From the NCBI GenBank assembly GCA_020137815.1, contig CM035357.1, positions 4,960,001 to 5,024,000 of the forward strand: a DNA stretch of 64,000 nt, given 5' to 3'. The first letter of the stretch is position 1. Each line of letters starts with the position of its first letter. Both the position numbers and the translations under genes were made by a program. The notes beneath the pieces were generated by a model. That model saw only the letters and a program-made list of their open reading frames with translations, searched no databases and had not been told where the DNA came from. Origin of the DNA: Hormiphora californensis (Eukaryota; Animalia; Ctenophora). Positions 38,702-64,000 of the stretch are shown piece after piece.

Positions 38702-39256
38702 TGATTCACACCTCACCGTGTCTAGTGGCTGCTCTGCACCGTTTCACCCCTCAGGTCCCTAGTGGGTTGGCCCGTTAAGTAGTTTATTGTTAGCTGTCAG
38801 GCCAATGCTCTGACCACAGTTCTCGCGCGCTCCGAGAGAAACGAGAATGGGTCAGATAGGTGCGGAGGAGTGAGTACCACTACGAGAACACTAGAGGTGC
38901 TTTCAGTATTGCTGCACCTAAATTATGGAATCAGCTACCGCGATCAATCCGGGACTCAGAATCCCTTACTACTTTTAAAACATCCCTGAAGACGCACTTG
39001 TTCTTTAGAGCATACAAGAATTACAAGAATTACAAGAATTACAAATAAGTTTTGGTATTGTACACAATCAATAGTCAAAATAATACCACGCACTCAGCCT
39101 AAGCATCCACGTGAAGTGTTGTGATAAGTGGGAATGAAGGTTACTTGCCTTCCGTCAGCAGACTAAAGAGCGAGTTGTCCCCAGTTGTGTGGTATCCTGT
39201 GACCGGAGGTCTGTCGGGAAGTGTGTCGAGAAATCTGCCCAGATTGACTTTTAGGT

Positions 39257-40100
39257 CAAAGACCTAGGAGTCCTTGTTTCAACAAACTGTGCATGGTCGG
39301 AGCATATCGGCAGCATCACGACAAAGGCTCGTCGGATGAGTGGATGGGCACTTAGTGTGTTTCGGGATAGATCGGATGACACCATGCTAACCCTACTCAA
39401 ATCCATCGTCAGACCCCAGGTTGAATACTGTTGTCCCCTATGGAACCCTGTCAAAAAGTCAGATATTGCACTGGTTGAGGAGGCACAGAGACAATTCACC
39501 CGCAGGATCGCGAGTTGTTCGGGCATGAATTACTGGGACAGACTCCATCACCTCAAAATCCTGTCCCTTCAACGGCGCCGAGAACGATATATAATTATCC
39601 ACGTCTGGAAGGTCCTGCATAAGGTAGTACCAAACAGTACGAGTCTCTTGTTTACAGAGCACCCACGCCTTGGCACCAGAGCGGTAATTCCTCGGTATAA
39701 CTACTTGGCCCAAAAATCCATCTCTGGCCCCTATGACTCATCATTCGGCGTAAAAGGAGCTCAGTTGTGGAATGCAGTGCCTCGGGTAGTGAGATCTTCA
39801 GCTTCCCTACTCGAGCTAAAGCAGTCGCTCGGTAAATATCTGTCCACCATCCCTGACCAGCCACCGGTTCGTGGGTATAGTGTTCAGCACAGTAACTCCC
39901 TGTTGGACTGGAGAAACGATCCGAGTGTTTTCAGAGAGTAAATCATTCAGGGGTGTTTTGCTTTTCTATGTTGTTTGGCTGCCCATTAAAACCCGACTCC
40001 TTTTGGTGTCTGAGTGTTAGCTCTTTTTGAGCTGAAACTTTGTGTACAATGCTTAATTTATTTATGAATGTTTATGAATGTTTATGAATGTTTATGAATG
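39257..40100 (+). mobile_element. 5'-truncated CR1-group LINE inserted antisense into the previous element
   Basis: KDLGVLV..VEYCCPLWNP..SLQRRRERY; (TTTATGAATG)n tail; TSD TAGGT. Confidence 0.88.
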
Positions 40101-42037
40101 TAGGTTGTCAACAGATGTAGATAGACGAACTGATGTCGGCATCCTGTTGAAGAGTTGGATAGCTCGTATCCCAAAGGATTCCTCTCGAAGAGTCTGGACT
40201 GATTTTTGAGCAGTGTGATGGATTTGTGGGAGATGGGCCTTTGGTCCATGACGAAGATGATTGTAGAAGGATATGTTCGTGCTGTTTGGTACCATCTCGT
40301 GAAGTATCTTCCATACCTGAATTATCATGTACCGTTCTCTTCTTCTTTGTAGAGAAAGAATCCTCAGATACTTAATCCTTTCCCAATAGTCCATACCTTC
40401 ACATTCTTTCACCCGTCGAGTGAAGAATCTCTGTACGGTTTCCAGTTGAGCAATATCTTTGATTTTACACGGTGACCAAAGTGGGGAACAATACTCCAGC
40501 TTTGGCCTAATCAAAGACTTTAGTAGTGTCAGCATCGTTCCTTCAGATCGGTCTCTGAATACTCCCAAAGTCCACCCGGCCAGGCGCTTAGCCTCCTTCG
40601 AAATGATGCTGATATGGGTTTCCCAGGAGGCGTCGTCCGTCATGTAAATCCCCAGATCCTTAACACAGTAGGCTGGCTCGATGGCTTCACCCGATGTGCT
40701 GTTGTATCGGTAGCACTGGACATTGAAGGGAAGTGCCCGCAGGAATATTGTATTGTTCAATCTGTAATTCATAACTTCGTACTTGTCTTCATGAAGTAAC
40801 ATGTTGTTGTTTCTCGACCAGATTGCGATGTCGTCCAGGTCCTTTTGAAGGGCTTCTTGGTCTTCCAGCTCTTTAATAGCTCTACGGTTCTTTGTATCAT
40901 CTGCAAACGTTAGTGGGTGTCCGCTTGTCCATTCCACTAGATCGGCTATATACAAGATGAAGAGAAGAGGCCCAAGCACGGACCCCTGAATCACACTACT
41001 CAAGACCGGTTCTGATCTTGAGAACTTTCCTTCCAGAGCCACCTTTTGGGTTCTTCCAGTCAAAAAAGCCTCAATCCACCCTAGTAGCTTTCCTCTTACT
41101 CCATATTTCCTTAGTTTACCTAGGAGAATCTTGATATCCACCTTGTCAAACGTTCGGTAGATCGAGGCCAGTATCGTGTGACATCGGGGTATATAGACAG
41201 CAATCATGTTGTTGAAATCGTCACTAATTGAGGTTGTATCGGTGACAATGAGGGAACTGTGAATAAGAAGTGCACATCCGCCCCCAGTCCTAAACTCCCG
41301 ATCAGATCTGAAAAGGTTGTACCCTGGAACATGAACTTGGGCATCTTCGATCCGTCCGTCCCACCATGTTTCGGTGAGACTTACTGCAGCAACTGGAAGC
41401 TTAGAGGAGGTTATCAAGTCCGCCACGTACCGCATTTTCCATTTTGTTTGGCTCCCCGCAGATGGGTTGAGACTTCGCCCGTTCAGAAGGATAAGGTTTG
41501 AGCCTTTAACCTTACCTCCGTATACATCGTTGCGTTTTTTGTTTAACGTGCACTTTGAGTGAGGGTTATCCCAGGTGGTATACTCCAGGACACGTTCGAC
41601 TGGTTTGGACTTGTTTTCTGTTTGTTGACCTCGTTTGCTACAAGGCCTGACAGTTTGTCCGACAGCCTCACCAAGAGGCGCTCGAAAAAATCCTCTTCCT
41701 TGCTCCTGTTATCGGTCTCCTCTCTGGAAGGGTTCCTGGGTCTGTTCCAGCCGGTCTGTGAGCTGTTGCTGGCGTTTCTGGTTCGGGACCTGGACCTGTC
41801 TCTGTTTTCGGAACTGTTGTTACGGGATCGGGGCTGATGGTTCGAGGAGGTTTTGCGGTTTCGGTCTCCAGCTACCTTCCATCCTTCATCATCATCGTCA
41901 TATCATACATACAACCAATGATCGGCAAAATAATCCTCACTTCCCTACATTTGGTACATCCACATGGATTCCTGAGTAACTACTGTCTCCAACTCCTATT
42001 CCTGATTCCTGGGCTCCCTTTTTCTCGTGTATTCCTT

Positions 42038-42690
42038 CACATCGATACCTGGGTCCTCTACTCCTACCTCCTCCACATCGATCCCTGGGTCCTTTACTCC
42101 TACCTCCCCCACATCGATCCCTGAGTCCTCTACTCCTACCTTGCTCCACATCGATCCCTGGGTCTTTTCCCAACCTCCTTCACATCGATCCCTGGGTCCT
42201 TTACTCCTACCTCCTCCACATCGATTCCTGGGTCCTTTACCTACCTTGCTCCACATCGATACCTGGGTCCTTTACTCCTACCTCCTCCACATCGATCCCT
42301 GAGTCCTTTACTCCTACCTCCTCCACATCGATTCCTGGGTCCTTTCCCTACCTTGCTCCACATCGATCCCTGGGTCTTTTCCCAACCTCCTTCACATCGA
42401 TCCCTGGGTCCTTTACTCCTACCTCCTCCACATCGATCCTGGGTCCTTTCCCTACCTTGCTCCACATCGATCCCTGGGTCCTCTACTTCTACCTGCTCCA
42501 CATCGATCCCTGGGTCCTTTACTCCTACCTCCTCCACATCGATCCCTGGGTCCTTTACTCCTACCTCCTCCACATCGATCCCTGGGTCCTTTACTCCTAC
42601 CTTGCTCCTCATCGATCCCTGGGTCCTTTACTCCTACCTCCTCCACATCGATCCCTGGGTCCTCTTCCTTGCGCTGCTCCATATCGAGCA
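42038..42690. repeat. About 36-bp minisatellite (cacatcgatccctgggtcctttactcctacctcctc)
   Basis: More than 15 degenerate copies. Confidence 0.9.
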
Positions 42691-43802: not shown

Positions 43803-45023
43803 CAGTCGGACCCCGATTTACCGGGCCCCGATTTACCGGAACCCCGATTTACCGGGAGGAATTCTTTCCCCCGATTTTTTTTGGAAAATTTTCGAAGTTT
43901 GGCCGGTTGGTAAACTTGCATTTGCAATTTGCTAGGTCTAATGGGGATCACGTATCGGTTCGTTTCGAACCGTCTAATTAGCGGCAGGACATGTGATAAG
44001 ATGCACCGATTCGAAACACGATTCGAACGTGGCTGGTATACCTTAGAAAAATTTCATAACTTTTTTTTGCAAAATTTTACAGAATCATTGTCAATGCTTT
44101 GATCGATGCTCCCCGTCAATTTTCAGAGAAAAAGTTATTTTGAAATTTTGATACTTTCTCACCCCGCTTAGGGTGCCCAGATTCGGCATGGTATCACGTA
44201 TCGGTTCGTTTCGAACCGTCTAATTAGCGGCAGGTCACGTGATAATATGCACCGATTCGAAACACGATTCAAACGTGGCTGGTATACATTATAAAAATTT
44301 TATAACTTTTTTTTGCAAAATTTTACAGAATCATTGTCAATGCTTTGATCGACGCTCCCCGTAAATTTTCAGAGAAAAAGTTATTTTGAAACTTTGATAC
44401 TTTCTCACCCCGCTTAGGGTGCCCAGATTCGGCATGGTATCACGTATCGGTTCGTTTCGAACCGTCTAATTAGCGGCAGGTCACGTGATAATATGCACCG
44501 ATTCGAAACACGATTCAAACGTGGCTGGTATACATTAGAAAAATTTTATAACTTTTTTTGCAAAATTTTACAGAATCATTGTCAATGCTTTGATCGACGC
44601 TCCCCGTAAATTTTCAGAGAAAAAGTTATTTTGAAACTTTGATACTTCCTCACCCCGCTTAGGGTGCCCAGATTCGGCATGGTATCACGTATCGGTTCGT
44701 TTCGAACCGTCTAATTAGCGGCAGGACACGTGATAAGATGCACCGATTCGAAACACGATTCGGACTCGGTCGGGGTGGTTTACCTTAGAAAAAGTTTTTA
44801 CATTTTTTTTTGAATTTTTAAATTTTCTATTTCTAATGACAGAAGCAATGATCATATTGTCATCAATAAATGTATAATATACAATTAGAGGTGTCTTGGT
44901 ATAGAATTTTGGACAAAAGTAGGATTTATGGGTCAAATATGCTCTACCCCGATATACCGGGCACCCCGATTTACCGGGCAAAATGGCTTCCCCCGAGGAT
45001 CCCGGTAAATCGGGGTCCGACTG
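43803..45023. mobile_element. Tc1/mariner-pogo-type non-autonomous element with about 3.3 internal 246-bp tandem repeats
   Basis: TA-CAGTCGGACCCCGATTTACCGGG ... CCCGGTAAATCGGGGTCCGACTG-TA; repeat starts at 43951, 44197, 44443, 44688. Confidence 0.88.
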
Positions 45024-46999
45024 TATATAACATTATCAAGTTGTTGGTTCGATCTTCAGAGGCACTGGGTAAGAGCAGATACACAACGGTGACGGGCGGC
45101 GGCAGTCTCTTAAAACAGTGGACATGGCGTAGCTCACAATCCCCTGTAGTTTGTACATCACTGATACTCTTCTCCAGTAGGGAATCCTTGCGATTATAGC
45201 TAGAGTATCCTCGAACTAACCTCGCCCTGTAAAGCAATGATTTTGGTACCGCTCTAACAACTCATCCTTGGGGGTATCAAGACGCCAATGTCACCAAGGC
45301 GGTTCCTGTTGGTCCTCAGATCGTTTAGGACTTCCATGGTGTCATTCGCCAGGGAACTGATATTAGGTGTGTGTTATCATCTTTCTTCTCCTCTATATGC
45401 TTCCTTGAGTCGCCTTACACTGTGTCCGTGTATGCTGTATGGACAATTCAACTGCTTCCAGTTCCTGGCCATTTGGGAAAGAGTTGAATTGTTCATTGTG
45501 TCAGGCGACTCAAGGAAAGAGGCAATGATCGGTACCAAAGAATACCAGCCATGTCTATGTAAGCGATTATCAGTTATCTTCTGCTTTTTAGGTGGTATCT
45601 AGTCTTTTCAAGTAGTTGTTCTTCAATTTGCTCCGGTCAAGCCCCCTTCCCTATCTTTTGGGTTCAGAGTTCTCGAGTCGTCTATGCCTGATAAAACTGT
45701 GATTCACGCGAGTTAACCACAGGGGTCACTCCCTCCACACACCATGAATTGTTCAATGTAATTTTTTCTGTCAGAGAATAGGCCTGACCCTATTTTTATT
45801 TCTGTTCTGCACGTGGAGCACGCTAGAACCGCGGTCAGAGCATTTGCCTGACAGTTTTAAAAATAATGACTTTGAACTTTTTTATCGCTGTTTGTAGGGA
45901 AGTAAATAAATAAATCATTATAGTGGTTTATGTGTATTTTCGGCTAAAGGGTTAGCGACGTCTGGGTGTTTGGTCGTACACCACCGACTCCATGGTAGAT
46001 TACTTTTTTGTTCCACTAGCCCGCAGTATTACAAATATATTGAAAAATAATCGAGGCTATCAAACAAATGACCACCTATCAAACCCAAGCATGTACTGTT
46101 CGAGAGACTTCATCATTGAGCTGTCTGGCGCCGCGACCCCATCTGCAGGGTCTGGCGCCGCCACACTGTCATAGAGGAGATATAAAATCCCTGCTAAGTG
46201 ATAAATCGTGGACTGAAGCCATCATGGATGGAAAGGATTGTTGACATGGTTAGTGTGGATTTTATTGATAATTTATTCTTACAAGGCTTTTAGTGGGAAT
46301 ACTTCTTGAGTTACTCAACAACACTTTGTTGTCAATCTGGCTCTCTGATTGGTCACGCTTGTGCGTCTTCTTACCGTTTTGGCCAAATCCCATATTATTC
46401 AGATACCCGATACCGTATTCCCATTACAAGTAGCCTTGTAAGCACCTCAGCTATAGCTGTCTTCAGTCTGGGATGCGCATATATTGAGACCAATACTAAA
46501 ATGATACCACTTTTCTCTTTACATAACAAGTTTTATTTAACAACAGAATAAAATTCGGACATAGTCAGCGGCGTGAAAGCAATATAAACAGCTGAGAAGT
46601 TCCAAACACACACACATGATTTGCAGTGAGAATAGAACTGGCACAGAACTATTTGTGTTACCTAATGTATAGAAACCAATACTACACACAATCATGAATG
46701 ATGAATCCATGATACACTCAGCTGCAGTGACTACTCGATATATATCTCAACTTTAATCGTTTTCGTTATCGTCAGCTCAAATATTATATTGTATTTAAAT
46801 GTATATCTAATCCACTGTAAAAGTCCTAAGCAAGCTAAATACAAGAAAATGGTGTAAAAACAAACTCTCTGCATATATACCTACAGATCGCTACACAACG
46901 TGCTCTCCGTGTTGATCCCCGAAGAAAATATAATACAAATGCTCACAATTCCACCAGATCAGGTGTCAGATGAAAAGCTCTACTCACAATTAAATGTGC

Positions 47000-48261
47000 T
47001 CACATTTTCTCTCTCTCATACACAAAGCTAAACTTGGACACAATAATAGTCATTGGGAGTGCAAGAAAAACGATGCCTAGAGTGAGAACAAATCCACCAA
47101 AGAGTTTCCCACCTGCGCTCTGAGGATACATATCCCCATATCCCACCGTTGTTATGGTAACAATAACCCACCAACAACTCTGCATGATACTGTCAAAGTC
47201 CTTGTTATAGGCGCTCTCAATGTAGTACATGATCGAACCGAACGTAATGACAAAGATGAACAACAGACAGACGAGGAGGATGAGTTCCCGTTTAGCATTG
47301 CTAACTGCCTTCATGATAATCAACAGATCTCTGGAGTGTCTGATGAACTTGAATATACGAACAATACGGAAGATCCTACAGACTCGGAGGACCACGTATG
47401 CTTGTTTATTGTCCATACTGTCTTCCCCGCCATTGCCAACACCATTTGCCATGAGGCCCACGTAAAAGGGGAGGATCGAGAGGAAATCCAAAACGTTGAA
47501 GAAGTTCTTCCAGAAGTCAATTGGGCGAGGCCACGTCAGTAATCTTATAGTGAAATCAAAGGTAAAAAAACCCATAATCACGCAATTAACAATGAACAGA
47601 TACCAAAAGTATGTTGCGTTTTTGTCCGTGAATTGTTGTTTGAATTTCGGCTCCGACTCGAAGATAAGGAACGCTATGGAAACACAGATGAAGGCAATGT
47701 CGAAGCCATGCCAGACCGCTGCAACTTTGGAAGAACGGGGATCCTGGAGGAAATTATGAATTTTCATTCTACACGATTGGATACAGTCCACCCCAGATGT
47801 AGAATCACCATCCGGAATGTAAACAGCTAACTCTCGCTCCTTTTTGATACCAAAGAATTCCTTCTCCTTGGCATAGACATCAGGATCTACGTTGAGTGGG
47901 GGTGCTTCCTTCCCCGTCTGGTAGTAGTGCAGGATAGAGTCAAAACAGGGTCGGTGCTTGTTGAAGTAGAACGCATCGAGTTTATCAGACCAGTATTTGT
48001 TACGCCGCTCAGGATTGCCAAGGAGGGTCGCTGGAAATTGATTCAGGGAGGTGTATGTTGTCACAAAGTTCGTACCCGAAACATTTATCGTCACCTAAAA
48101 TAAGGGCAAACGAACGTTACATGACGTGTGAACTGATGTCAGGCAAATAATAAAGCTCGTTTTAGAGACTTTTAATGTTTGAGACTTATATTATTCCACT
48201 CACCAAATCATCATCATTTGTCACTTCATCTTCCTCTGTAACTGTCGTCCCTTTTGCCTGC
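47000..48261 (-). CDS. Shaker-family voltage-gated K+ channel, constant exons (48261-48204 and 48094-47000)
   Basis: T1 domain INVSGTNF..QFPATLLG..FDSILHYYQTG; S4 LRVCRIFRIVRIFKFIRHS; pore WWVIVTITTVGYGDMYP; exon 48261 requires a phase-2 upstream exon. Confidence 0.95.
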
Positions 48262-49675
48262 CTGAGGAAGAGGGGGGTTAGAAATATTATCGATGTATCT
48301 CTCCTTATAATTTGGCCTGAGTAAGGGCTCTTCCACCCCTTGGCCCTTACTCAACAAGCCAAGATCTGAAAGTTATATTATGACTACAATTTTACCACGA
48401 TTTATACACGATTTCTCCATTCATCCCAGCAATTGATGCAATGAAAAGTTATATTTGTAGCTCATTTTGCGATGATCATCACCGTACGGTAACTTTTCTT
48501 GAATTGTGTGGCTATCTCTCCCACCGCACCGCTAATTTTCTTGCAGTGTCGCGGAATTGGTGGGCAATTAACAAATCTCTTGGTGAGAACCACGGAATCT
48601 TCACTGAAGACTAAACTCACTATAATCCAAATAAATTAATATATAATCCAATGACGGTAAATTCATAAAACTCTCTAATTGTAAGCCTCAAAATATGGAG
48701 AAAAAATAAAAACAGAGTTGGTAGATTTATCGAACCTTTTAGTGAAGCATATATTCATTGATCCTTCTTCACAACATGCACACATGGATCAGAAAGTTTT
48801 ACACGGGTGTCTTTATCAATGGTGTGTGGGTGGGTCGTAGGGTGATATTTCCAAGGTTTGTGTGAATAGTGAATAGGTGGTTGTAGGGTGTACAAATAGA
48901 AGGCGTACACACAACAAGAGTGCACATGGTGAATGACAGTGTGTAAAATAACAAGGTAGAAACTGTGATGGTATTGCACAATGGATCCCATTGTGTGACC
49001 ATGTGCAGTAACTAGGAAGGCATCGTCGAAACAGGGTATCATTTGATGCAGGTGTGTTTGTTTGTTAGTGCTGCGATTCGGACTATGCAAAGCATATCGC
49101 CTCAAACGCTCCAAGGAGCTTTGGAGCTCCCTATACATATGAAAGTTGTTGAGTACTCAACAATATGAAAGGGAATCTGGATCATCGAAACAATCGAAAC
49201 AGAATGGGTATAATAAGGCGAGATGTAGATGTGTAACAAAATACAAGTTTTGGAGAAGTGCAATGCGTGGAAGAAACACGAGCAACAGCTCTCTCTCTAT
49301 CTCCTGCTGCACGAACAAGGAGTTGGGTAAAACAGACTTTTAAACGAAAACAAGATAGAGAGGGGAGAGAGGTAGAGAGGCTGGTGGGGGAAACACTTTC
49401 AACACCCTGCTATTATATGATACACGCAGTACGCTAGAGGTGTTCCTACCAAGCACGTGTGGAATGAGCGGAATTTTAGTTTCACAGCTACGGTAGAGTT
49501 GTGGAGTCTACAGTAGATACACAGTAGATAGCACTTGCATTCAGCTCAGAGAATCAATTATTAGTTACAGGATCTGTTAGAACCTCATGCCAGATGAAAC
49601 AAGTTCTATAAGTTCAACCACTAGCCGGTGTTGACAAGCTACTTAATTCAAAGTCTGGAACCGAAATTAGCACTA

Positions 49676-49903
49676 AAGGTCCCCCCAAACTACTATGTCC
49701 CTTGCTGCGCGCGACCGGATTTTAGATGGCCATAGCTCCACCCCCTGATAAGATAGAGACTTGAAATTTGTTTTGAGAGGAGATCATGTCGAGTTCTTCC
49801 TGCAAAACAAATTTCAAGTCTCTATCTCATCAGGGAGTGGAGTTATGACCGTGGGAAATTTTACAAAACCCGAGTGAGGGACATAGTAGTTTGGGGTGTA
49901 CTT
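49676..49903. mobile_element. TA-flanked MITE with AAG...CTT ends, related to 24718-24914
   Basis: ccccaaactactatgtccct TIR; shared catagctccac..gatagagacttgaaatttg core. Confidence 0.8.
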
Positions 49904-50068
49904 TAGTACTATTCGTGGTGGTGTGAAAACTGAAAAGTCTTGAATTAAAAGTAAATAACACTTTTACAATAAACTAAACAATCCACTAGGGACATCAGCG
50001 GTGAAACTGTGCAGCAGCCCTAGTTAGACGGGTGTGAATCACTGGTGTGGTTTGTGCAGAAAATTAAA

Positions 50069-51340
50069 GTTGTTGTTGTTGTTGTTGTATGCGCCTCCGC
50101 TTCCAATCCTCTACTTGTGATTTTATCCCGTCCGGCAGCCAGTTCCTCACGCCCGAGAAGGACGGAGCTCAGGTTCCAGAGTTTCCTCTTTCCCCCGGGA
50201 GAGTTTTCTTCCTCCGTCTTATGTCCATGGTTTTGGAGATAAGGGTGGAATCGTCTCCCATAACTATCTTAACAGGTCCCATGAAGAGGACCGCACCAGC
50301 ACTGTTTTCACATTGTGCCAGTCTCGGATATCTCCAGCGACCCTTGGTGAGTGGCATCTCAGCATTGATCGCTTTAGATGTGGCCTTGGCTAGGACAATT
50401 CGGACGCTCCATTGACTATGGCACCTTTGTAGATTTTGCGCTGCCAACCTCTGATTTGTAATCAGTACTCCATGTGGGTTCATGGAACATCACTTTTTGT
50501 TCGTGATGCAGATGCAGCGTCCGGCCGTTCATGGGGTAGTTAGGGCAGGTTCCTTCCCAATTAACGGAACTCTGGCGTGTGAAATGTTTAGTGGGTTAGG
50601 TATCTATGTGCGTCACTCATAGAAATTTGTTTTGTAGCATGGGATAGTGGTTTGTTCTGTTTGTTGATCAGGTTTTTGTGGAGGCTTGTTTGTTGGTAGA
50701 GATGGATGATGTTGGTTTGTTACCTTCATCGTTTGGGGGGTAATCGCCATTTGGGAATCTCGTACGCTTCTCATGGACTTTTGAAGAAGCGTAGGTAGTA
50801 GCGAGGCTACTGGTTAGTGTAGTTTCTCCCTGTTGGGCTACGGAAAAACCCCTTGAGTTTATCTCGACCACGGCGTGGGAATTTTGCCGAGAGTCGGTGG
50901 TAGCTAACCAGTTATGACCTAGCCTGTTAGACCTTTTATACCTGTCCAGAGGCTAGGTGGACAGAAGGTAGAGGGAGGCCAGTTGAGATTAGACCTCCTC
51001 CAGCCTGGACTTTTGCTGGAGGACGGGTTTTGGCCGGTATTTAGCCATCTACTTTGGCCCAGTGCACAAGGCTGGGGAGATGGTGTAATACCGGCCGGGG
51101 GGTATCTCTATTCAGAGAGAGATGAGTCATGAGCGGATTAGAGAAAGGAAGAGAGAAAAACACACCACCCAAGGAGGGCAGCTCTGTTTCCTTGGAGTGG
51201 TATGTGAGATGCTCCAGGCAGTTCAAGAGCTTCATGGTTTACCCCGGGGTATGCCGGGTCACCCCTGAAGATTCCCTGCCTGGTCTGTAGGACACTATTG
51301 CTATCTAAAAAAATAGACATTAGCCGCGGCCTGCAACTCA
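50069..51340 (-). mobile_element. Probable degraded retroelement fragment
   Basis: Coding-like composition with broken frames and a (CAA)n tail; no diagnostic motif recognised. Confidence 0.25.
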
Positions 51341-51398
51341 AGGGCGTGGGAAGGAATCTCACCCTCCAGAAAATTAAAGTTAAGTCACACACTCTTAC

Positions 51399-51478
51399 CC
51401 TCCTCCTCCGATGAGTTCAGTGCTGCTTCTGCTATTCAAAACTTTGTTAAATTTACTGTTACACGCTGCCCCCTTCAT
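51399..51478 (-). CDS. Kv variable first exon A: MKGAACNSKFNKVLNSRSSTELIGGGG
   Basis: 80 nt = 26 codons + 2; donor GTAAGA. Confidence 0.55.
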
Positions 51479-51667
51479 TTTCACGACGATCCAAAGGCCT
51501 CTAAGGATCTAATATATCCGGAAAACTTCTGCTCAAGCGGTATACAGCAATCCCCGACTAGAAAGCAACAGAAGCTGATGCAGATTTCACCTCCTCCTCC
51601 TTCTCCCGTTCATTTAACTAGATTAACCCAATCAAGTAAGAATGCAGTTTGATTAGGTTAACAGCAC

Positions 51668-51799
51668 CTCTTTCTCTCCCTCATTCTCTACCTTCTCTCT
51701 TTCCTTCTCTCTTTCTCTCTCTCCTTCTCTCTTTCTCTTTCTCCTTCTCTTTCTCCTTCTCTATCTCCTTCTCTCTCTCATTCTCTCTCCTCTCTCTCT

Positions 51800-51844
<45 letters not shown>

Positions 51845-51870
51845 TTCTCTCTTTCTTTCTTTCTCTCGTC
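51668..51870. repeat. CT-rich microsatellite
   Basis: Directly visible. Confidence 0.9.
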
Positions 51871-52322
51871 TTCTCCCAGAAGAGTCTTGCGTGGAGGAGT
51901 TTACACCGTCAATTATCTGCAATACGCTGACAACCAAACCAACTTACGGCAAGAGCTATTTCTGGTGATTAGAGCTAACTAAATCGAAATAATGCAAATG
52001 TATTATATATATAAGTTGATTGGGTGACTAAATGAGAAGTATCTTGCAACTCCTTCGAAGTTGAATATCATCAAAACCAAGAACTTAAGGGCAAGCTAGA
52101 AAAACATCAGCAATCATTATCCTAGAGCTGTCTGGCGGCATCCTATTTTCAACAGTGCACGATCAGAAGATAAGAAGATCGGGTCGGCACAGCCAGACTG
52201 TAATCCTAGTATATTAATTCGAGTGGAAAATAGCCCTAAAATGATCTCTCCCTGTAACTTCATCATCTAACTATCAATTCTGCATATATTTTGGAATACT
52301 AATTACCCTACCAATCACAAAC

Positions 52323-52711
52323 CTGGGCTCCCTTTCCTGCTTTACACGGAGCATTTGAGCAGTTACGGATGGATGGGTAATTAGGTCAATCTCATCCTCC
52401 TCCTTATTGCCAGGTTCAGGCTTCCTTCCCTCCTCCTCCTTATTGCCAGGTTCAGGCTTCCTTCCCTCCTCCTCCTTATTGCCAGGTTCAGGCTTCCTTC
52501 CCTCCTCCTCCTTATTGCCAGGTTCAGGCTTCCTTCCCTCCTCCTCCTCCTCATTCTCCTGGTCCTCCTTTCTAGGAGAGTCTCCAAAACGCAAATGCTG
52601 GTATGACGACTTGGTACACGGTAACTTCCTCTTGGTTGACTCAGCTGTTGGAGTACCGGAGGAAAGACGACGACCGTTGCCGAGACCCATAATTACAACG
52701 CTAGAATTCAT
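52323..52711 (-). CDS. Kv variable first exon B: MNSSVVIMGLGNGRRLSS...(EEEGRKPEPGNK)x4...EPR
   Basis: 389 nt = 129 codons + 2; donor GTTTGT; acceptor at about 52841. Confidence 0.65.
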
Positions 52712-53601
52712 TCTGCCCCGCGAAATGACACACAATGTCCCCCTCGGGCTCCTCTTCTCTGATGATGATGAAGAAGTCTCTCACAGGATTAATTAATTTG
52801 CTGAGACCTGCTGACGGAGCTAGGCATGCAGACACAGGACCTTTTAATAAAACAATGGAAGAACAAGAGTTAGATGTAGCTTGATTCGCCTGATGACAGT
52901 GACACTGTGTCCGTGAACAATTCAATACAATATGTAGCACAATCCTCCGTCTTCTGCAGCTCAGAGGTATTGTCTTGTGAAGTGAGTCGATCAATACACA
53001 ATAAACGCACCAAGAAAGCAACAAAGGAGTTAGTACACTGAAGAAGTATAGGACAATGATCAGTAGTAAATGCATTTAACCATTTGCCAATGTGAAATGT
53101 GAGTGCACTAACATGTGCATCAAATTCCTACGGCAGAATGACATACTGCTTACGGAATTGAACACACTCTCTTTGAGCATTGAGGACACATTGATGACAC
53201 ATTGAAGATACATTGAGGACACGTTGAGGACACTGCACCTACCCATTTTTTAGGCGTTTAATCCAGTTCGGCGTTGAAGAAGTCAAGATGAAAATTGAAA
53301 AGTAAAGAAACTAGTTAGACAGCAAACCGCACACTATGTATCAGATCATAAATTATTACTATTAATATTAGCTGCATGTGAGAGAGCTTCGTGAGGGTGT
53401 GACAATGTGACATCTTAAACCGAGAAACTCTTTCTCTCTACCTCTCTACAATTACTCTCTCCCTCGCTTCAACACTCTCAGACTCTGCAAACGGCATCAT
53501 TCGACCTTCCCGCTCCCACTCGCTAAGATCTTCTCCATGTGTTTCTCTCGATCTCTCTCATCCCTTTCTCTCTCGTTCATACTAATAAGAACTATACTCA
53601 C

Positions 53602-53738
53602 TGAGGAATAAGTGTTCCCATAGCATTAATAATTCCATTATCCAGGCCTTTATTGTTCTCAAAGAAAGTCATCTTTGCGCTGGCTCGGAAAATGTCCGGT
53701 AACCCGGCTGCCTTCGGTCCTCCACCACCGCGATCCAT
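53602..53738 (-). CDS. Kv variable first exon C: MDRGGGGPKAAGLPDIFRASAKMTFFENNKGLDNGIINAMGTLIPQ
   Basis: 137 nt = 45 codons + 2; donor GTGAGT; AG 4 nt before the ATG. Confidence 0.6.
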
Positions 53739-54400
53739 ACCACTAGGTGTATCACACTAGGAACTACTACACTATAATAACACGTGTATTAATTTGTACT
53801 GAAACGTATGCACCGCTCAAGTAGCGGCGGTGCACTAGGAAAACACTACAGATGTGACAAAACAGACTAAATGTGCACAAAGGTGTGGAAAAGGAGAAAG
53901 GGCAAGCTCTTTTATAGGGCACATGATTTCTCCGATTTCCCGATAGTGGTGTGTCTCGCTGTGCTAAGATAGCGTGGAGTGGTCGGAAGTGCAATAAACA
54001 ATAACCGGAACTCCCTCCCTCCCTCTCTCTCTCTCTCGCGAGGGAGGGAAAGAGAGAAACAAAGTAGGAAGAGAGATAGAGAGGGATAGAGAGATAGAGA
54101 AAGATAAAAAAGAAAGGGAGAGATAGATAAAGAGAAGGGAAGATAAATAAAAAGAGAGAGGGATGTGGTATATGTCTATTAATAATTTTAATACCACGTG
54201 GTTACGGGAAAAAGAGGAGGAGGAGGAGGAGGAATCCTCTCTCTCTCTAGCTCTCTCCCCGCCGAGGGCACTAAACCTGTTTACAGTCAACCCAATTCTT
54301 TAACTTGGTTATTTAGTTTCCTTCTCGGGCGACTTCATAACAACTTGGCAACTTACTACCCGGTAGGTTGGGTAACTATAACAACAGTGCAGCTCACACC

Positions 54401-54450
<50 letters not shown>

Positions 54451-54847
54451 TCCTTCATACCATGGCTGCCTTTCACCTTCTCGTATGAGTGACTAAATTG
54501 ACTTCTGGTTCTAAATACTGTCCGTTTATTGCATTCATATGGATTCAAAAGTCTTTTTTCTACAGCGTTTTTTAGTTTCCTATTTTAACCGTATTTTCCT
54601 CCCTCGCACATGGCTTGCCTCCAACTTCCAACCTCTATGCATAATAGAATCCATCGAGGCTTTAACTTCCTGGTCTTCTAAAAAAATGTGTTGACCATGA
54701 GAGCCCAGAGCGATTAGTATGAAAAACACACCACTATTGGCATTGGTGCAGTGATTACCAGCCAAACGAAAGTTAGAAGTGTAAATTGTGAATCGCTATT
54801 TACCAATTATAGTATAGCAACTTATAGCAGGGGCATCTAAAACTCAC

Positions 54848-55005
54848 CTCGACGTTTTCCCGCCTTTTTTCGACGAGTGGTTCTGCTCCTCTAGATCCTC
54901 AAGTTCCTCGGCAAGAAGGTCCGCCTCGTGCATTTCAGCGTTGTAGCGTGCCCTGCTTAAACACGGCGAGCGTGGGTGCATGCACGCCTGCTGAAGCATT
55001 GACAT
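54848..55005 (-). CDS. Kv variable first exon D: MSMLQQACMHPRSPCLSRARYNAEMHEADLLAEELEDLEEQNHSSKKGGKTSR
   Basis: 158 nt = 52 codons + 2; donor GTGAGT; acceptor ttatag 15 nt before the ATG. Confidence 0.7.
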
Positions 55006-57046
55006 GGTGGACCAATGTTACTATAAATAGCTATGTGCATGTAGATTGGGTAAAACTAATGTATATCGTAAGAAATGTTTGGTAAGTTTAGTCGAATTTA
55101 CGAGGTGTTAATAGGCTACGACCGATGCAACTGTAAGTAACGATAGTGCAGTCACAATGTAACAACTAAAAACTAGATAATATGCACAAAGGAAAAAAGG
55201 AACAGGAGTATGGGTAGAAAACTATCGGAAAGTAGAAATGTTTGTAATAAATGCGAGACAGCTGGACATATCTAAAGTCTAAACTTTAGGGATAATAGCT
55301 GAAGAGTGTATAAGACATCCATCCCGTTTTAGCGGAGTAATGCCGAGAATGCTCATGTTCATGCTATGAACTCATTTTGAACCGGAGACCGCCGGAGAAT
55401 ATTTTGTGCAACCCAGGCTTGTATCACCTATCATATACAATATATCAATATCTAGATCTTGTATTCACATATTTTAACACATCTATGGCAGAAGAGAGAA
55501 GCTAAACTCGGAAACGTGTCAATACATGAGCTCCAGACATGTGTATTTACCTAGGTAAAGCTATGTGTGTATTATTTAGACATGCGTTCGCACTGCAGGG
55601 ATAGTACAGCTGCCGGAGGACAGTTCTAGGAAAGGACTGAAGCATTTGCAAGAACAGCCTCGGTAGTATGACCATATTTGGTAATATGGAACTGTGCCAT
55701 ATTTGGAGCTATATAAGTGCCGATTGCCGAAAAAACGAGAGGATTCGGAAGACTAGAGACAAACAGAAGAAGGCGAGTTTGATGGGATTTAAAACCACCA
55801 AGGGACATTATCAATCGTTATTCAAGGGGCATACGTTTTCGAGCGCTGCTGTTAGCTGTACTGCTGCAAGTTTACCTGACGAAGGGTAGCAAATAACATG
55901 GTACCTCTAAGTAGCAAACACACTACAGGTCTCACAACTCTCTCTCTCTGACAGAGAGAGTCTCTCTGTATCAAGCTCACCCCCTCTCTAGCTCTATAGC
56001 TCTCATAGTCCCTCTATCTCGCTCACCCTTACTTTCTCTCTATCTATCCACCTCCCTCTCTCTGCCTCTCTCTACCTCTATCTATCTCCCTCTCCCGGTT
56101 GGTACTCTTCCACTATCATACCTATAGCTATCTCCCCCTATCTACATATATACGCTAGGTATTTATTGTCTCGGGAAACTGCTGACAAGCTCAAAGTCAA
56201 ATATATTATGTGATGTTCAAGACGCCTCGAGTGCGGGCCTAAGTGATCGGGGAACAAAGTGTTAACCGGGAACTCGCTTTAAGGGTGGAAAGAGCCCAGT
56301 GAAAATATAGAACTAGGAGGGAATGTCCTTGCTAAATCCAATGATAAACGGAGACGGCTTGTGCAGTAAAAATTAACGAAATATTAGATTGCACTACATA
56401 CTTATTAATGATCTATTTTCGCTGGCCTCTACTGTTCACGAAATCTCAATCTCTTTCCTCAAGCTCTATACCACTCGGTTCTAAATTTGCATTCACCTCA
56501 GACGATTAGGCCCGCAGATCTCTTCTCTATCATCATCTAGCGATTACTAGGCCATTACTATTCCGAAGCTATCTTCTGTCTGCTTTATGATGGAATTCGC
56601 CATTTTCAACTCTATCTCTCTCAGATAAGATTGTAGCGTAAACATTTCTTTTAGAGAATATGCTACATTTACCCCAAAAAAACCTAACAGTAAATCTAAG
56701 TGCGTTCACATACACGTCCTTTGCCTACTCTCTATCTCTCCCTCTTTTTCTCTCGAGTCTCGCTTTCTCTAGTCTCTCTCTCTCCCCTCACTATCTCTCA
56801 CGCTATCTCTTTTATCTTCTCCCCTCCCATTTCCTCTCAATATACAACAAGAAGCTTCGGTCAAAAAGTTATATACACCAGATCTCCAGTATATACAATA
56901 GGAGGTCTAGCAAGTGGACTAAGAGGGTTGGGAGATAGTGGTATAGAGGATTGGAGTGGGGGAGAGAGAGAGAGCTAGAGATGTGTGCGTGTATTCTGAA
57001 AAATGACGTACCTCAGATAGATAGAGAGATGCTTACTTTTTTAAAG

Positions 57047-57313
<267 letters not shown>

Positions 57314-58099
57314 CCTGTCCTCCTCTCCGCTCGTTCACTCTCTCCTCATTTGTCTCATCTTCATCTCTCTCAGTCTCGGCCTCTCCTTCCTCTCTATCCG
57401 AGATCTCCTCTAGCTCGTATCTCAGTCCATCGTCTAACCTGCGACCTTCTACACTCAAAAAGGCTATGGTTGAGTAGTCCCATTGTGAGTCACTGTCAAT
57501 GCAGCTTCATATCGTGAAAGACAGATATAGAAGATTTACTGTTTTGAGCGACTGAGATTATAGAGAGAGGGATCATAGGGCTCGAGCAAAGATCATGTTA
57601 AGATTATAAAGACTGAGTCACAAAGGGAAACGATAAATGGTGAAAAGAGTGCTGAAATCGCCATTTTGATTGAGGTTATATGTATAACATATGCAGTTCC
57701 ACTGAAGCAACTAGAATAACATGATGACTTCAATGGTTTCAGCAGACTCGAATTTTTGAAACACCCTCCTGGACGTGAACATTCTCACTGTTATTATACA
57801 CATGATGGCCATGTACATAGATCACTCGACCAACAGAAGCAACATCGTCTCAGCTACAGACAAGACTATGATGTACAGTGGGAAATTAAAAGGGCTGTAC
57901 ACTTCAATACAATATCGGGCTGTGTCTCACTCTCATCTTTCTCACTGTCTTTATCATTTTCAGTAAATTGCCGGGTAGAGTTGATCTACCGACTCTACGA
58001 TGTCCACAAATAAGCCTACAGACCAAACAGCCGTGACTAAACACAAGTTCATCAGACTGTTTTCACTCATCATGCCGTCAAACGTAAAGCGAGATTAAA

Positions 58100-60600
58100 A
58101 TTGGGATGGGAAAAGAAAGGGATAAAGGTTGGGAAAAAGGAAAAGAAGGGGGAAAAAGAGAGAAAAAAGGGGGGGAAAAAATAAAGGTGAAAAAGGGAAA
58201 CGTTTTTGAGATTTTAAATTTTTTAAATAGTTATGAAAAACGGGAAACAAGCTTTTTTTTTTTTTTTTTCACGAAAATTTTTTGAAACCCCCAAAATTTT
58301 TTTTTAAAAAAACCCGGGTTTTACTGACCCCCCCAAAAAAAAACCCTTAAAACAGAAGAATGTACGTGGGAAATTTTAAAAGGGTGTCATTCAAAACAAA
58401 TCGGGTGTTTTTTCCCCTCTATTTCTCACCGTACTTTATCATTTTCAGTAAATTGCCGGGTAGAGTTGATCTACCGAGCTCTCACAGAGTGGTGTGGGGA
58501 AAAAAGGAAGAGCCCCAAAACAACCAAACAATCTAAAAAAAAAAAGTTTCAGTCCCCGATTTTTCCTCTGCAATGGGAATGGTTTAAAATGTGAACGAAA
58601 AAAAAAAGGCAAATTTGGTATAAAGGGGTTTAAGTTAAGAGGGAAAAATTTTAAAAAAGAGAGTGAAAAAAAGGGGTGAAAAAGAGGTTGACATAAAAAG
58701 TGAGGGAGGAAAAAGGGGAGAAATGAGATAGGGTAATATATCGAAACTGCCAGTTTTCCTTTAACACGAAATTATCAAGAGGTGCAAAGTTTAAACTTTC
58801 TCCTCTCTTTCTTTCTCTCTTTTCTCTCTCCTTTTTTTTTTCTCTCCCTCTCTCTCTCTCTCTCTCTTTTCTTCTCTTCTTTCTCTTCTTTCCCCCCCCT
58901 CTCTTTTCCCTTCTCTGCTTTCCCATCTTTCCCCCCTTTTCCTTTTCCCCCCTTTTTCTTTCCCTTTCCCTTTCCCCCCTTTCCCCCTCTCTCTCCTCCA
59001 CGAATGAGCGAGGCCTTTACAAGCTAAAATGTAGACGGCCAGAGAGATTGTGAAAAAGGAAAAGGGGGAAAGAAAAAAGGGGTTTTTTCCCCTTTTCCCC
59101 AAAAAGGGGGGAAAAAAAAAAACCCCCCCCCAAAAAAAAAAAGGGGGCCCCCTTTTTTCCCCCCGGGGGGCCCCCCCCCCCAAAAAAAACCCCTTTTATC
59201 TTTTTTCCCCCTTTTTTCCCCCCCCCCTTTTTCCCCCCCCTTTTCCCAGAAGGGCGAGGTTTAAACTAAAAATTTAGAACCCAAAAATTTTGGGTTAAGG
59301 GCCCGGGGGGGGAATTTTAAAAATTTAGAAAGGGGGGAAATAGAGAAAAGAAGAGGGGGGGCCCGATAGCCCCCCAACCAAAAAAAAAATTTTAAAAAAA
59401 AAAGCTCCTTCCAGTCACCCCTACGTGCTACAATTCAAAGGAAAAAAAAGCTAACCCATCCCGCCCCTATCATCCCTGTGTGCTCAACCTCTGTCCCCAA
59501 CCTTCCTCCCGGTTTGGCTCCACCCACACACCTAACCCGTCCAATAAAAACCCATAGTGTTCTCCACCAAACCCCGTAAATCCTCCACCCCCACTCAACC
59601 CCCCCCCAGCTCCGACCCCCCCCCCAGTGAACCCCCCGTTAAAACAAAACCCCCCCCACCAACCCGTCCCAAAAGAAACCATGGGGGTCCTCCCATTTCC
59701 CTATTCCCCATTTGCCCCTTTTCCCCTGCCCCTAATCTCTCAGCTCCGTCCCCCTTTTCGTCATCCTTTCCCCTGCCCTTCCCGTTTTCCCTACATGGGT
59801 TTTCCCGGTAGGTTTCTCAATTACCCCACCTCTTTTCAGGGTTTTTTTTTATTTTTAAACCCTACTTTTGTATTTGGGCTCCTTTTTTTATTTTTTTAAA
59901 TTTTTTCCTTTTTTTTCTTCCTTTTTCTCTTCTCTTCCCTCTCCCCCCCCCGGGTACGGTTGAGTGTGCCCCCATGCTTCTAATTGTTGTCCCATAAATA
60001 CCCCAATTAGGGTCTTTTTCCCCCGCTATTTTTTTTTTTGCATTATCCACTGCATTCTACCCGGTCTTTTTGGGAGGACTTCCTCCCTCGTGCCGCGCGG
60101 ACCCTCTCTGTTTTTTTCTCCTCCCCCTCTTCCCCCTCTCTCTAGATCTCCCCCCTTTTTTCTCCTCTCCCCCCCTCTTCCCCCTTTTCTCTCTCTCTAG
60201 ATTCATCAAATATTTGCACAGTCACCCCTAGTTCATCTGCATTTTCCCTCCCTACAATGCCTAGTCACACCCAGAAAATCTGCAGTTACCCTGCTTCATT
60301 CACTGGTCAAAAACCTAGCACTCTGCTTTACCCTGCCTTTAAAATGCAAATCCACCCAGTATTCGCATTTACCCGCCTATTTTGCCTAAAACCCCTAGTT
60401 CATTCGGCAGTTATCCTGTCTATCACTGCACTAGTAACACCTAGTTCATTCTGCAATTATCCCCTCCCTCTCCCCCGCCCTCTCCCTATCCTCCCCTCTC
60501 GCTCACCCCCACCCTTTCCCGCTCCCCAATCCTCCCCTCTCCCGAATCCCCCGCCCTCAACCTATCTCACCCCATCAAATCCTAAAGACAATCTCGCCAT
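58100..60600. other. Low-quality, homopolymer-inflated sequence (probably an unpolished gap fill)
   Basis: Extreme A/C/G/T runs; 58434-58476 duplicates about 57950-57992. Confidence 0.75.
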
Positions 60601-61791
60601 GAGCTTGAGAGTAAGATGGCTGGACCGCCCAGAGTCGCCCATACTCTAATAGAATGAGCACTCTCTGGCGGACCTGTTCATGACGACAGACATATGACAA
60701 AGCGTTGGGCCCCCCTATGCACAAGACTACCTCGTTTCCCTAATTGGACACTTTCGAGACTAGTTGTAAGGGGGATCCGGGTTATGCCGTCGCTACCCGG
60801 GTGGTAGAGGACTTGGTACACCCTAGCTTAGTGCCCCAAAAAAAAAAAGAAAAAAAGAGAGGGGGGAAAGATAGTTGTAAAAGTATAGAGAAGGATGCTG
60901 TCCATGATTGTCGATTAATTCGCTGTAATTGTTAATTGTGGCTTGATGAAGGTCCTAATTAAGTTCGACTAACTTTTAAGTATTTCGGGTCTGGTCCCTT
61001 CTATAACTACTATACTTATAGTCCAACAAGAGATTCTATATTCGACATCCAACAGTCGATTGCAGCACTAAGAAATAGGCTGGAGCTGCGAGGGACAAAC
61101 ATATTATATTATGTAGGAACACAAAAAAATGGAATTAACTTCGCTTGAGCTCTGATAATCATATGTGATTGTTTCCGATTGTCATGGTGATCACAGGAAA
61201 TAAGAGCCAATGGACTCATTCTCATTTAATTGCTGATTATCCGGGGGGAAACGAGTATCACCTCTTAGATCTTAGATCTATAGATCACCTTTTTAACTAG
61301 GGATAAAGACCCTGCAGAGTGCTCCACCTCTATTTGATAGTAGGTGGAAGTAGCTGAACGCATGAAAAAATCCGTTTAACAGGGGACGGTGAACGCAGGG
61401 GTCAGGATCAAATACTAATACATTGTCACGATCAGATGATTTGCTAGAACACAAAAAGATATGTGGGTTCCACGTGTATAGGTACACATCGTGTAGAGGA
61501 GCAATAAAGAGCATTCTCAGTACTGATGATGCAGACATTGATTCTACTGTCTCAGCTTGCAATACATTTACTACACCAGTGTGTATATTGGTGCAGTGTT
61601 ATAGGGCCAGTGACGTCTACTGACTACTAACAGGATGTGGAAATACTTTATATAAACGTATAATATAAAATTTTGGATTTGTCATAAAAAAGAATGGCTA
61701 TCATTCGCTTTTTGTTTACATACTGATGCAGCTTGAATGACCGCGACTATTATAATAAGGGTTTAGTTTTTTTCGGGTTTGTTTGACTTAC

Positions 61792-61937
61792 TCAAGAGTT
61801 CGGCCATTGTCAGTATCAACTTGCCCAGAGTTATCCTCGCAAAGTCTTGGTGGACCCAGTGGAAAACGCTCGATCGCTTCTCGTCTTGTCAAATCGCGAA
61901 TTTGCTTCAAAGACAATTTCGATACGAAAAAAGGCAT
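61792..61937 (-). CDS. Kv variable first exon E: MPFFVSKLSLKQIRDLTRREAIERFPLGPPRLCEDNSGQVDTDNGRTLE
   Basis: 146 nt = 48 codons + 2; donor GTAAGT; tttag 4 nt before the ATG. Confidence 0.6.
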
Positions 61938-62317
61938 CCTACTAAACAACTTTAGTTCTGTTGGAACAACAAAATGAATTCAAAAGTGGTGGAGTGGAAA
62001 ATTTTAAAGTTTAGTGTGAACTAACTGCGGGGGCAAAAATGACCAACTGTAATAGTTCGGCAGCTGCTCTACGGAAAATGTTGTGCCTAAACTTTTTATT
62101 ACAGTTAACTCATACTGGAACAAGTTGTTGAGTAAGGGGTACTCAACAACACACTGAGTTAGTGAAGTGTGAAATCACTTTTCGACATGACTTCGGCTGG
62201 AGTTGAATTTATTTTGTGAAAATTACCCATCACCAGTTTAAAAGATGGGTTAGTTCACCAAAGTCTATCTTCACTTACAAGTGTTTAGATATTAAACAAT
62301 ATAAATGTTTAACTTAC

Positions 62318-62472
62318 CCATTTGGACATGTGTCCAGGTGCTCAGATTCACTCGTGTACTCCTCCCCCATAACGCCATGATGGTGAAAGGTGTAGGTTGT
62401 ACAAAGCTCCTGGTCGTGTGCATCCATGGCGTGTACCGCCGCACTCCTTTTGCTCGGCGGAGATATCCACAT
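62318..62472 (-). CDS. Kv variable first exon F: MWISPPSKRSAAVHAMDAHDQELCTTYTFHHHGVMGEEYTSESEHLDTCPNG
   Basis: 155 nt = 51 codons + 2; donor GTAAGT; ctag 5 nt before the ATG. Confidence 0.6.
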
Positions 62473-63608
62473 GGTAACTAGCTGGTTACCATGGTTACCA
62501 CTTGTTACCTAGTACCGCTATATAACTAGAACATGAGGGGTAAAGTCAGAATAAGAAGATATGGGTAGGATCAAGAGCGAGCAGGTACGATTAAAAGCAC
62601 CTTTAGAAATAGCTGCAATTTCTCATTTACTGAGCACGCTATGATACTATTGTTATAATATTTGCACTAAATATTACAGCTCTGTGCAACCAATCCATTG
62701 GATTTATTTCGCATTATATATTGGGATGGTTTACTAAACCAATCAGCTGGTCGTAGCTTTGCGCTGTAAATTGTGGGCCGAAAAAGGGAAAGAAAGGCAC
62801 ATCTTATATTCTTCGTATTACAGCTAGAAGGAGATAAGCTTGAAAAATTAGTAGCGAATTGTAACATTTAGTTAGCCCTGTCAAGGCACAAGCAGTATCA
62901 TACTGTAGAAATGATCACAAGATCATAACTTCAATACAAAGTCAGCTGGATAGTATAAAGACTGTTCCATTCTTCATGAATATCCTGAAACAGCTAAACT
63001 GGGGGAAGAGGACTAACAAATCCCACCCTCAAACCAGGCCGGGGAAAGGAAACTCTATGGTTCCAACCCTTAATCTCAACCCTTGTAGAGACGGCCTCCA
63101 AGAAGAAGAAGAAGAAGGCTAGTATAAAGAGGTCAATCAAAGTAGGTACTAGGAATGAAAACTGATACGATCAAAGTAGGAAAAACTGATACGGTTTACA
63201 ACGCTAATAAATAATGGTGACAGACGTGAACAAATGTGCCAATAAAACTACCTGTGTCTCCTCGTTAACTAGTTGTTGTTGTAGATATGTGTGTATGGAT
63301 GTTAGTGTAGGTAAAGAGAGTTAAACAAACAATATATCACTTCCTATATTGTTGGAAGGAACGAGGTCATCGTGCAGTGCCCCTGAACTTTAAATGCAAA
63401 AGAACAAAGCATAATTTGTAGAAAATGTTAATAATCTAATTTGTTAGGACTTAGGTCGGTAATATATTAATTCTTGTGCAGGCGAGGAGGTAAGAAGTTT
63501 TGCAAATTAACGTTCACAGAAATGGGGTGGAAATATATCACAGTGGTAGATGTATGTAAATTGGGGGGATACAATCAACTAATTTTGTGTGTAAAAGTAC
63601 CTACTCAC

Positions 63609-63952
63609 AGTTTGATTTTATTTGGGTAGTGCCGATATTCAACTGATTTATGTAGGATTTTGAGAAGGTATGGTAATATATCTTGGGTGACGTGTGTGCT
63701 TTGTGACTTGTGTCCCCTGTTATGTAGTAATCCACCATCCTTCATGCCACACACAACAGATAGAGGGATGGGGATGCTACCAAATACCAATGCCAAGATG
63801 TGTTCAGATTTCATAACATGAAATATGATGTGCATCTTTTGAGAAAAACTGGGCTCAAACAAGGGTCTACGTGGAGCGCTGTTACTTTCTGGTGTAACTC
63901 CGACAGATGGACGATTACCAAGAAAGGGGAATCTGCCGTACAGAGGAAGCAA
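63609..63952 (-). CDS. Candidate Kv variable first exon G (start uncertain), ending ..RHYPNKIKL
   Basis: 115-codon open frame ending AAA CT|GTGAGT (phase 2). Confidence 0.4.
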
Positions 63953-64000
63953 AAAATGTGATGTGCATCTTATGAGAACATTTCTGTTAAAATATTTTGA

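Follow-up and report, generated by a model that had tools for sequence, protein, structure and literature searches.

In a 64,000-nt stretch of the genome of the ctenophore Hormiphora californensis (contig CM035357.1, positions 4,960,001 to 5,024,000; hereafter the window), we identified one Kv1-like potassium channel gene on the minus strand whose constant body is joined to one start exon, F, and likely also to several further ones, with a single start exon used in each transcript, a reading to which we assign a probability of roughly three in four. Eight segments, A to H, are candidates for these start exons: three are firm (D, F, and H), three are likely (A, C, and E), and two are unproven (B and G). 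At least two of them reach one and the same acceptor, F by RNA and D, F, and H by orthologous isoforms, which identifies an alternative-first-coding-exon gene. An earlier, sequence-only reading of this DNA had proposed at least six alternative N-termini feeding one Shaker-type channel. Its core, one body with several exclusive first exons, is carried by the F junction, by the D, F, and H isoforms, and more weakly by A and E, but the figure of six is unproven. That reading had overlooked exon H and had not separated a 58-nt constant exon, with its 109-nt intron, from the pore exon. The array is nevertheless real, old, and larger than that reading saw.

The constant body identifies the gene. The pore exon (47000..48094, minus strand, 1095 nt) encodes a T1 (BTB) domain, the transmembrane segments S1-S6, and a TVGYG filter, with a stop codon a few residues past S6; Pfam reports BTB_2 and Ion_trans, and the best PDB matches are Kv1.2 and Shaker (E ~1e-61). 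The order expected of a Shaker channel, T1 followed by S1-S6 with TVGYG and a basic S4, was recovered with Pfam and by alignment to Kv1.2. The motif HX5CX20CC, which we take to be the pattern of the T1 zinc-binding site of Kv2-4, is absent from the window protein and present in a Shaw control. Upstream of the pore exon lies the constant acidic linker exon (48204..48261, minus strand, 58 nt), whose acceptor at 48261 has a strong pyrimidine tract and accepts phase-2 donors, and which contains no Met. A likely 3' untranslated region (UTR) occupies 46532..46999 on the minus strand, with the first AATAAA at 46537 and support from two oligo-dT contigs of RNA run X2 (46634-46784 and 46895-47045; n=2, zero differences). 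Compared with the Pleurobrachia bachei model, the constant part shows 3 differences over 382 residues; its identity to Mnemiopsis ACHWQZ_G004911, which corresponds to ML35172a (supplement of PMC11287247), is 82%. A quick tree of 40 proteins placed the window protein, the Pleurobrachia model, Mnemiopsis G004911, and the Bolinopsis orthologue in one clade (SH-aLRT 98). By these sequence criteria, the gene is a ctenophore (Pleurobrachia-type) Kv1-like Shaker and the orthologue of Mnemiopsis ACHWQZ_G004911/ML35172a. The prediction that annotation would miss the variable exons was borne out, the public Pleurobrachia model starting with an N-terminus (ATG 48465) that is intronic and frameshifted in the window; we rejected it as an exon.

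RNA provides direct evidence for one variable exon. Six of nine listed runs were aligned to two stretches, 46500-55300 and 60700-64000: runs X1 and X3 to the pair, X2 and X5 to the former, and X4 and X6 to the latter. Cover was low, so that absence at this depth proves nothing (sampled words were present at 5-18% in eight RNA runs). The pore exon was covered by contigs in three of the four runs aligned there, and an X1 contig removed the 109-nt intron (48203-48095) and carried a loose end at 48262. In X1, an oligo-dT metatranscriptome, a 186-nt contig placed letters 1-84 on F (62400-62317) with two differences, letters 83-145 on 48262-48200, and the remainder on the pore exon; one difference, near the F junction, is synonymous. 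Of the donors whose junctions into 48261 the sequence-only reading had proposed to count, that of F was the one seen joined. This splice spans 14 kb, crosses a noisy stretch, and skips E, D, C, B, A, and H; because F is joined to the constant exon across the noisy stretch, that stretch lies inside the gene. No cover of A-E, G, or H was found in the runs aligned. Proteins of F type (P0008) and H type (P0129) also come from short Logan/JGI contigs, which are likely transcript evidence.

Frame and phase point in the same direction. The description of A-F held throughout: the segments measure 80, 389, 137, 158, 146, and 155 nt, all 3n+2, with open frames and GT donors, and each fuses in phase 2 to 48261-48204 and 48094-47000 with only the terminal stop, giving predicted proteins of ~410-513 amino acids (aa). 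The gene strand upstream of the acceptor has nine GTRAGT donors, and five of them terminate an open frame that begins with ATG, is in phase 2, and spans 25 aa or more, whereas the simulated mean is 0.40 (none of 300 Markov simulations reached five); the GTRAG variant of the test gave 6 against 2.1 expected (3/300 simulations), and on the opposite strand none of 20 GTRAG donors closed such a frame. The cut-offs of this donor and frame test were set after the candidates were seen. Two supports offered by the sequence-only reading gave way. The AG found 4-15 nt before four of the six ATGs is at chance level, a YAG ending at that distance before 33% of the 230 ATGs in the region (p ~0.10), and the pyrimidine tracts of these sites score 0.4-0.6 versus 0.8-0.9 for the two real acceptors. 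Chaining of segments is not generally blocked by stops either, since 19 of 82 donor/AG combinations are open, including D into the AG 1 nt before the ATG of B.

Orthologous channels in Lobata carry the age of the array. The Mnemiopsis orthologue has six distinct annotated proteins with five different variable-exon ends, three accessions encoding the same F-type protein, and the Bolinopsis microptera orthologue has six (XP_063685764-65 and XP_063685773-76, automated NCBI isoform models). Automated isoform models usually rest on RNA. The lobate isoforms all diverge at the same point, before the acidic linker, and none is a chain of two window exons. The Bolinopsis orthologue is represented by two gene models on one chromosome, both with alternative N-termini (P0125/P0126 and P0063/P0132-P0134), one of which is truncated in S1, through either duplication or an assembly split. 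The region contains 297 phase-2 ATG-to-GT candidates, and each of eight lobate N-terminal types was scored against every one of them, with 100 shuffles per type. The D type selected D (154 versus -9 elsewhere; 0/100 shuffles), and the F type selected F (55 versus -3; 0/100), with the best score at an inner GT whereas RNA gives 62318. The MKAV type fell on A (5/100) and the MCGCK type on H (8/100), while the MAAAV and MGSWW types had no match in the window (40/100 and 73/100). The lobate orthologues carry species-specific N-termini beside conserved ones. As judged from the compared peptides, D, F, and H show old constraint reaching from Pleurobrachiidae to Lobata, lineages whose split is placed at ~170-260 million years, a figure given for Hormiphora (bioRxiv 10.1101/2024.12.09.627618). 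A short N-terminal fragment search with the Pleurobrachia model returned two proteins and no new N-terminus.

Individually, the segments differ in how firmly they can be called. F (62318..62472, minus strand, as are all that follow; 155 nt, 51 aa) is practically certain: besides its RNA junction, it matches the MW...TTYTF N-termini P0004 and P0008 (0/100 shuffles). D (54848..55005, 158 nt) is nearly as secure, with a conserved SPCLSRARY motif followed by an acidic stretch and matches to Mnemiopsis P0123 and Bolinopsis P0132 (z ~13; 0/100 shuffles). A library search with D returned a single protein, a 45-aa open reading frame of a close relative that is 91% identical and begins with the Met equivalent to 54981, which is likely the start of D. 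H (48736..48785), a 16-aa Cys-rich N-terminus with three Cys within its first five residues and a predicted palmitoylation anchor, is very probably real, being the best of the 297 candidates for the N-terminus of Bolinopsis isoform P0134 (score 52, runner-up 12; 0/100 shuffles). A, C, and E are each probable exons. A (51399..51478, 80 nt, 26 aa, GTAAGA donor) was the top candidate for the Bolinopsis P0063 N-terminus, weakly (19 versus 17; 5/100 shuffles). C (53602..53738, 137 nt, 45 aa) ends at a GTGAGT donor and had no match among lobate orthologue N-termini. E (61792..61937, 146 nt, 48 aa) ends at a GTAAGT donor and combines a hydrophobic start with basic residues after it; for the short lobate N-termini of MGFF/MGLF type, no candidate scored better than its residues 1-7 (2/100 shuffles). 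A 24-nt X6 RNA match in E was discarded, its flanks being unrelated. G and B are doubtful, B slightly the more so. G (63609..63835), the additional candidate of the sequence-only reading, does have an open phase-2 frame, with three in-frame ATGs (63745, 63814, and 63835), and a GTGAGT donor, but no RNA cover in the runs aligned on 60700-64000 and no orthologue match. B (52323..52711, 389 nt, 129 aa, with a 36-nt tandem repeat) is open and in phase with a weak donor, GTTTGT, and had no RNA cover in four runs and no orthologue match. A GLFSL look-alike at 49984 lacks an ATG and was dropped.

Each segment would serve as first coding exon in a separate transcript, most likely with its own promoter, and a ctenophore spliced leader possibly caps these transcripts. 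Promoter choice is inferred from several observations: no usable acceptor lies within 150 nt of H; C is preceded by a TATA box (TATAAAAG, 53909..53916, minus strand, 178 nt upstream of its ATG), a candidate promoter, and has a clean leader, the 150 nt before the ATG being free of ATG and GTRAG; and F skips all downstream segments. The TATA box lies below a GA/CT-rich island, and such islands occur upstream of both A and C; it is one of six TATAWAWR matches on the gene strand against seven on the other, and hence a hint only. It was seen before C alone, and the RNA contigs carry no 5' ends. The upstream regions of the variable exons gave no blastn match to one another except where the compared windows overlap, a search that short motifs would escape.

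The same proteins could also arise if the choice were made by splicing, either from one upstream promoter with mutually exclusive internal exons or by alternative spliced-leader trans-splicing, which we regard as unlikely though the strongest competitor together with a smaller array. In Hormiphora, at least 56% of Iso-Seq reads bear a spliced leader (PMC8527503); F is preceded by a plausible acceptor at a distance of 53 nt, E by two at 20 and 87 nt, and A by one at 79 nt; and the three Mnemiopsis accessions for one F-type protein imply that non-coding variants exist. However, H has no acceptor-like site, C has its TATA box, the AGs near the ATGs are at chance level, and the skipping of six downstream segments by F is simplest if those segments lack working cis acceptors. 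No spliced-leader gene was found in the window.

With a similarly low probability, only D, F, H, and perhaps A are real exons, and B, C, E, and G are chance frames or unused. B, C, and G indeed lack orthologue matches, E matches over seven residues only, none of the four has RNA cover, and the B donor is weak. Against this smaller set, C, E, and G end at GTRAGT donors, in a set far above chance, lobate orthologues have species-specific N-termini too, and RNA cover is too low to show absence. Somewhat less probable again is that the exons serve transcriptional control, with one promoter per cell type and the peptides as by-products that hardly alter the channel. Several N-termini are species-specific and unalignable, and some paralogues have an in-frame Met within the constant exon, as this idea would have it; but the peptide motifs of D, F, and H are kept between Pleurobrachiidae and Lobata, and the 58-nt constant exon of the window gene is without Met.

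On a par with that explanation stands the proposal, favored by the sequence-only reading, that the segments form a library of N-type inactivation balls tuning the inactivation rate. N-type inactivation by the N-terminus has been demonstrated in MlShak4, 5, and 13 (bioRxiv 10.1101/2024.12.09.627618), and the MlShak4 and MlShak13 genes have, among members listed, six and seven annotated N-termini (P0061/P0184-P0190 and P0155-P0165), several of them ball-like. The S6 motif LALPMT is common to the window channel and MlShak13, and LPMT to the window channel and MlShak4; since both relatives are N-type inactivators, the pore could accept a ball. The S6 gate would neither exclude N-type block nor mark a silent subunit, and PMT in S6 was rejected as a silent-subunit marker because MlShak4 and MlShak13 also carry it. 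A ball is expected to begin with uncharged, hydrophobic residues and to continue with basic ones. By this profile, E, B, and the MAAAVYY form of lobates fit but A, C, D, F, G, and H do not, so a library made up mainly of balls is not supported. Finally, assignment of E-G to another gene, or an assembly artefact of the noisy stretch, is very improbable: 58.1-60.6 kb is of low quality and contains a copy of its own flank, but the RNA contig links F to the constant exon, which refutes the idea for F, and the lobate orthologues of the channel carry F-type N-termini.

The best reading of the N-termini is a mixed set of tags, as far as peptide motifs can indicate. Subunits of one gene would share the same pore and differ in their N-termini, cell types would choose the N-terminus, and the tags most likely differ in function instead of uniformly acting as inactivation balls. 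From the appearance of their motifs, E and the MAAAVYY form of lobates could act as pore plugs, H and those lobate forms that begin with Cys or Gly2 would provide a lipid anchor, and D and F carry conserved motifs for a putative partner. Several lobate forms start with Gly2 or Cys clusters, and such clusters at an N-terminus generally suggest acylation.

Several points weigh against the promoter-selected array of tags set out here. Its junction support is a single contig of depth 4.7 from one metatranscriptome, and the six runs aligned, all of low cover, contained no junction for any of the other variable exons (A-E, G, and H). Lobate N-termini offer no counterpart to B, C, or G, and a mixed profile of C, E, and G, whose power had been confirmed in a local trial, retrieved no candidate from proteins 24-84 aa long. 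The ball profile is a crude rule, and the ball and lipidation assignments are drawn from motif appearance. Seven of 16 Mnemiopsis Shakers tested were silent (bioRxiv 10.1101/2024.12.09.627618), and conduction of the window subunit as a homomer is putative; no MlShak number was found for ML35172a in the literature searched.

The design appears, from annotated proteins, to recur in many ctenophore Shaker genes. We examined 19 further channel clusters forming 14 paralogue groups; 10 clusters were chosen for size, so that the sample is biased to large ones. Among members listed, 10 of the 14 groups have at least two different N-termini, six have at least four, and four have one, with up to 12 starts in one Bolinopsis gene. 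Across four paralogue pairs, 2/7, 1/4, 3/6, and 3/7 Mnemiopsis N-termini have clear Bolinopsis counterparts. Two of the genes examined are MlShak4 and MlShak13; MlShak4 is ML10392a and MlShak13 is ML01366a (PMC13749725), which correspond to ACHWQZ_G000176 and ACHWQZ_G006517, respectively (via the supplement of PMC11287247). In MlShak4, a ball-like Met peptide stands at the head of the constant part, and upstream exons would lengthen it.

The combination of a shared core with alternative N-termini is familiar from the 5' splice variants of Drosophila Shaker and from the alternative first exons of KCNAB1 (Kvbeta1.1-1.3), KChIP, and DPP6/DPP10, where these N-termini alter Kv inactivation, lipid anchoring, or trafficking. 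Those cases involve one alpha-subunit gene or auxiliary subunits with few forms, whereas in ctenophores the N-termini are added onto a Shaker expansion of 27-42 genes, many of which carry arrays of up to ~12 starts. In the clustered protocadherin and UGT1 loci, to which the sequence-only reading had likened the gene, the variable exons are large tandem paralogues encoding folded domains. The window array likewise has its variable first exons in line and splices them to constant exons that they share, but these variable exons are short and bear no relation to one another (none of 28 pairs significant after correction; smallest uncorrected p 0.028) and without shared upstream DNA by blastn; as they are not paralogous duplicates, this is not a cluster of the protocadherin/UGT1 type in the strict sense, though similar in working. 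The closest systems are the lobate orthologues (Mnemiopsis ACHWQZ_G004911 and Bolinopsis), which also have unrelated N-termini before the acidic linker and share the D-, F-, and H-type ends; they differ in being database models only and in having MAAAVYY and MGSWW, which have no match in the window, while B, C, and G have no match in them. MlShak4 and MlShak13 are likewise ctenophore Shakers with several annotated N-termini, inactivation having been demonstrated for one form each, but several of their N-termini look more ball-like than those of the window gene. The isoforms are already in automated annotations, and alternative N-termini are already known as a principle; no published description of these isoforms was found in a search that did not extend to Simonson 2024 in Biophys J, to the 2024 preprint as published in J Gen Physiol, or to the supplements of that preprint.

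Elsewhere in the window, the homopolymer-rich stretch at 58100..60600 is of low quality and apparently unpolished, carries an 85% copy of 57871-57996 at ~58360-58482, is likely a gap fill, and may hide further exons. Within the intron between H and A, the interval 49670-51370 recruits diverged loose-end contigs from several runs, contains a TATA-like site at 50940, and is likely the remnant of a transposon or a dispersed repeat. Two tandem arrays lie downstream of the channel gene, one with a 36-nt unit in ~18 copies (42033-42687) and one with a 246-nt unit in 3.3 copies that are 97% identical (43947-44761). An SMC1-like gene with very long exons occupies 28293-32699 on the minus strand, with a frame change near 30775 that is probably a one-base assembly error, followed by an arrestin-domain gene on the plus strand (35724-37047; Arrestin_N and Arrestin_C) and two LINE-type reverse transcriptase fragments on opposite strands (39255-41708; RVT_1 match in 40095-41708).

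Ctenophore electrical signalling rests on a single, independently expanded Shaker lineage of 27-42 genes, and the route to functional diversity is open (bioRxiv 10.1101/2024.12.09.627618). Studies at present take inventory at the level of genes and express a single coding sequence for each, and the main text of the same preprint, which did so, contains none of the terms "splic", "exon", or "isoform". We tentatively propose, while considering it the less probable outcome, that a large part of the expanded family carries ancient, promoter-selected arrays of N-terminal tags, comprising balls, lipid anchors, and targeting motifs, which would take on, within the alpha subunit, the roles that Kvbeta, KChIP, and DPP subunits have in bilaterians and would turn a few dozen genes into well over 100 subunits; published "non-inactivating" or "silent" phenotypes would then describe only the one cloned isoform. 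If this is true for many genes, and if the N-terminus sets fast inactivation, channel inventories would need redoing at the isoform level, and single-cell assignments and matches of native A-currents to genes likewise. The number of channel types made by ctenophores is likely far higher than a count of their genes would indicate.

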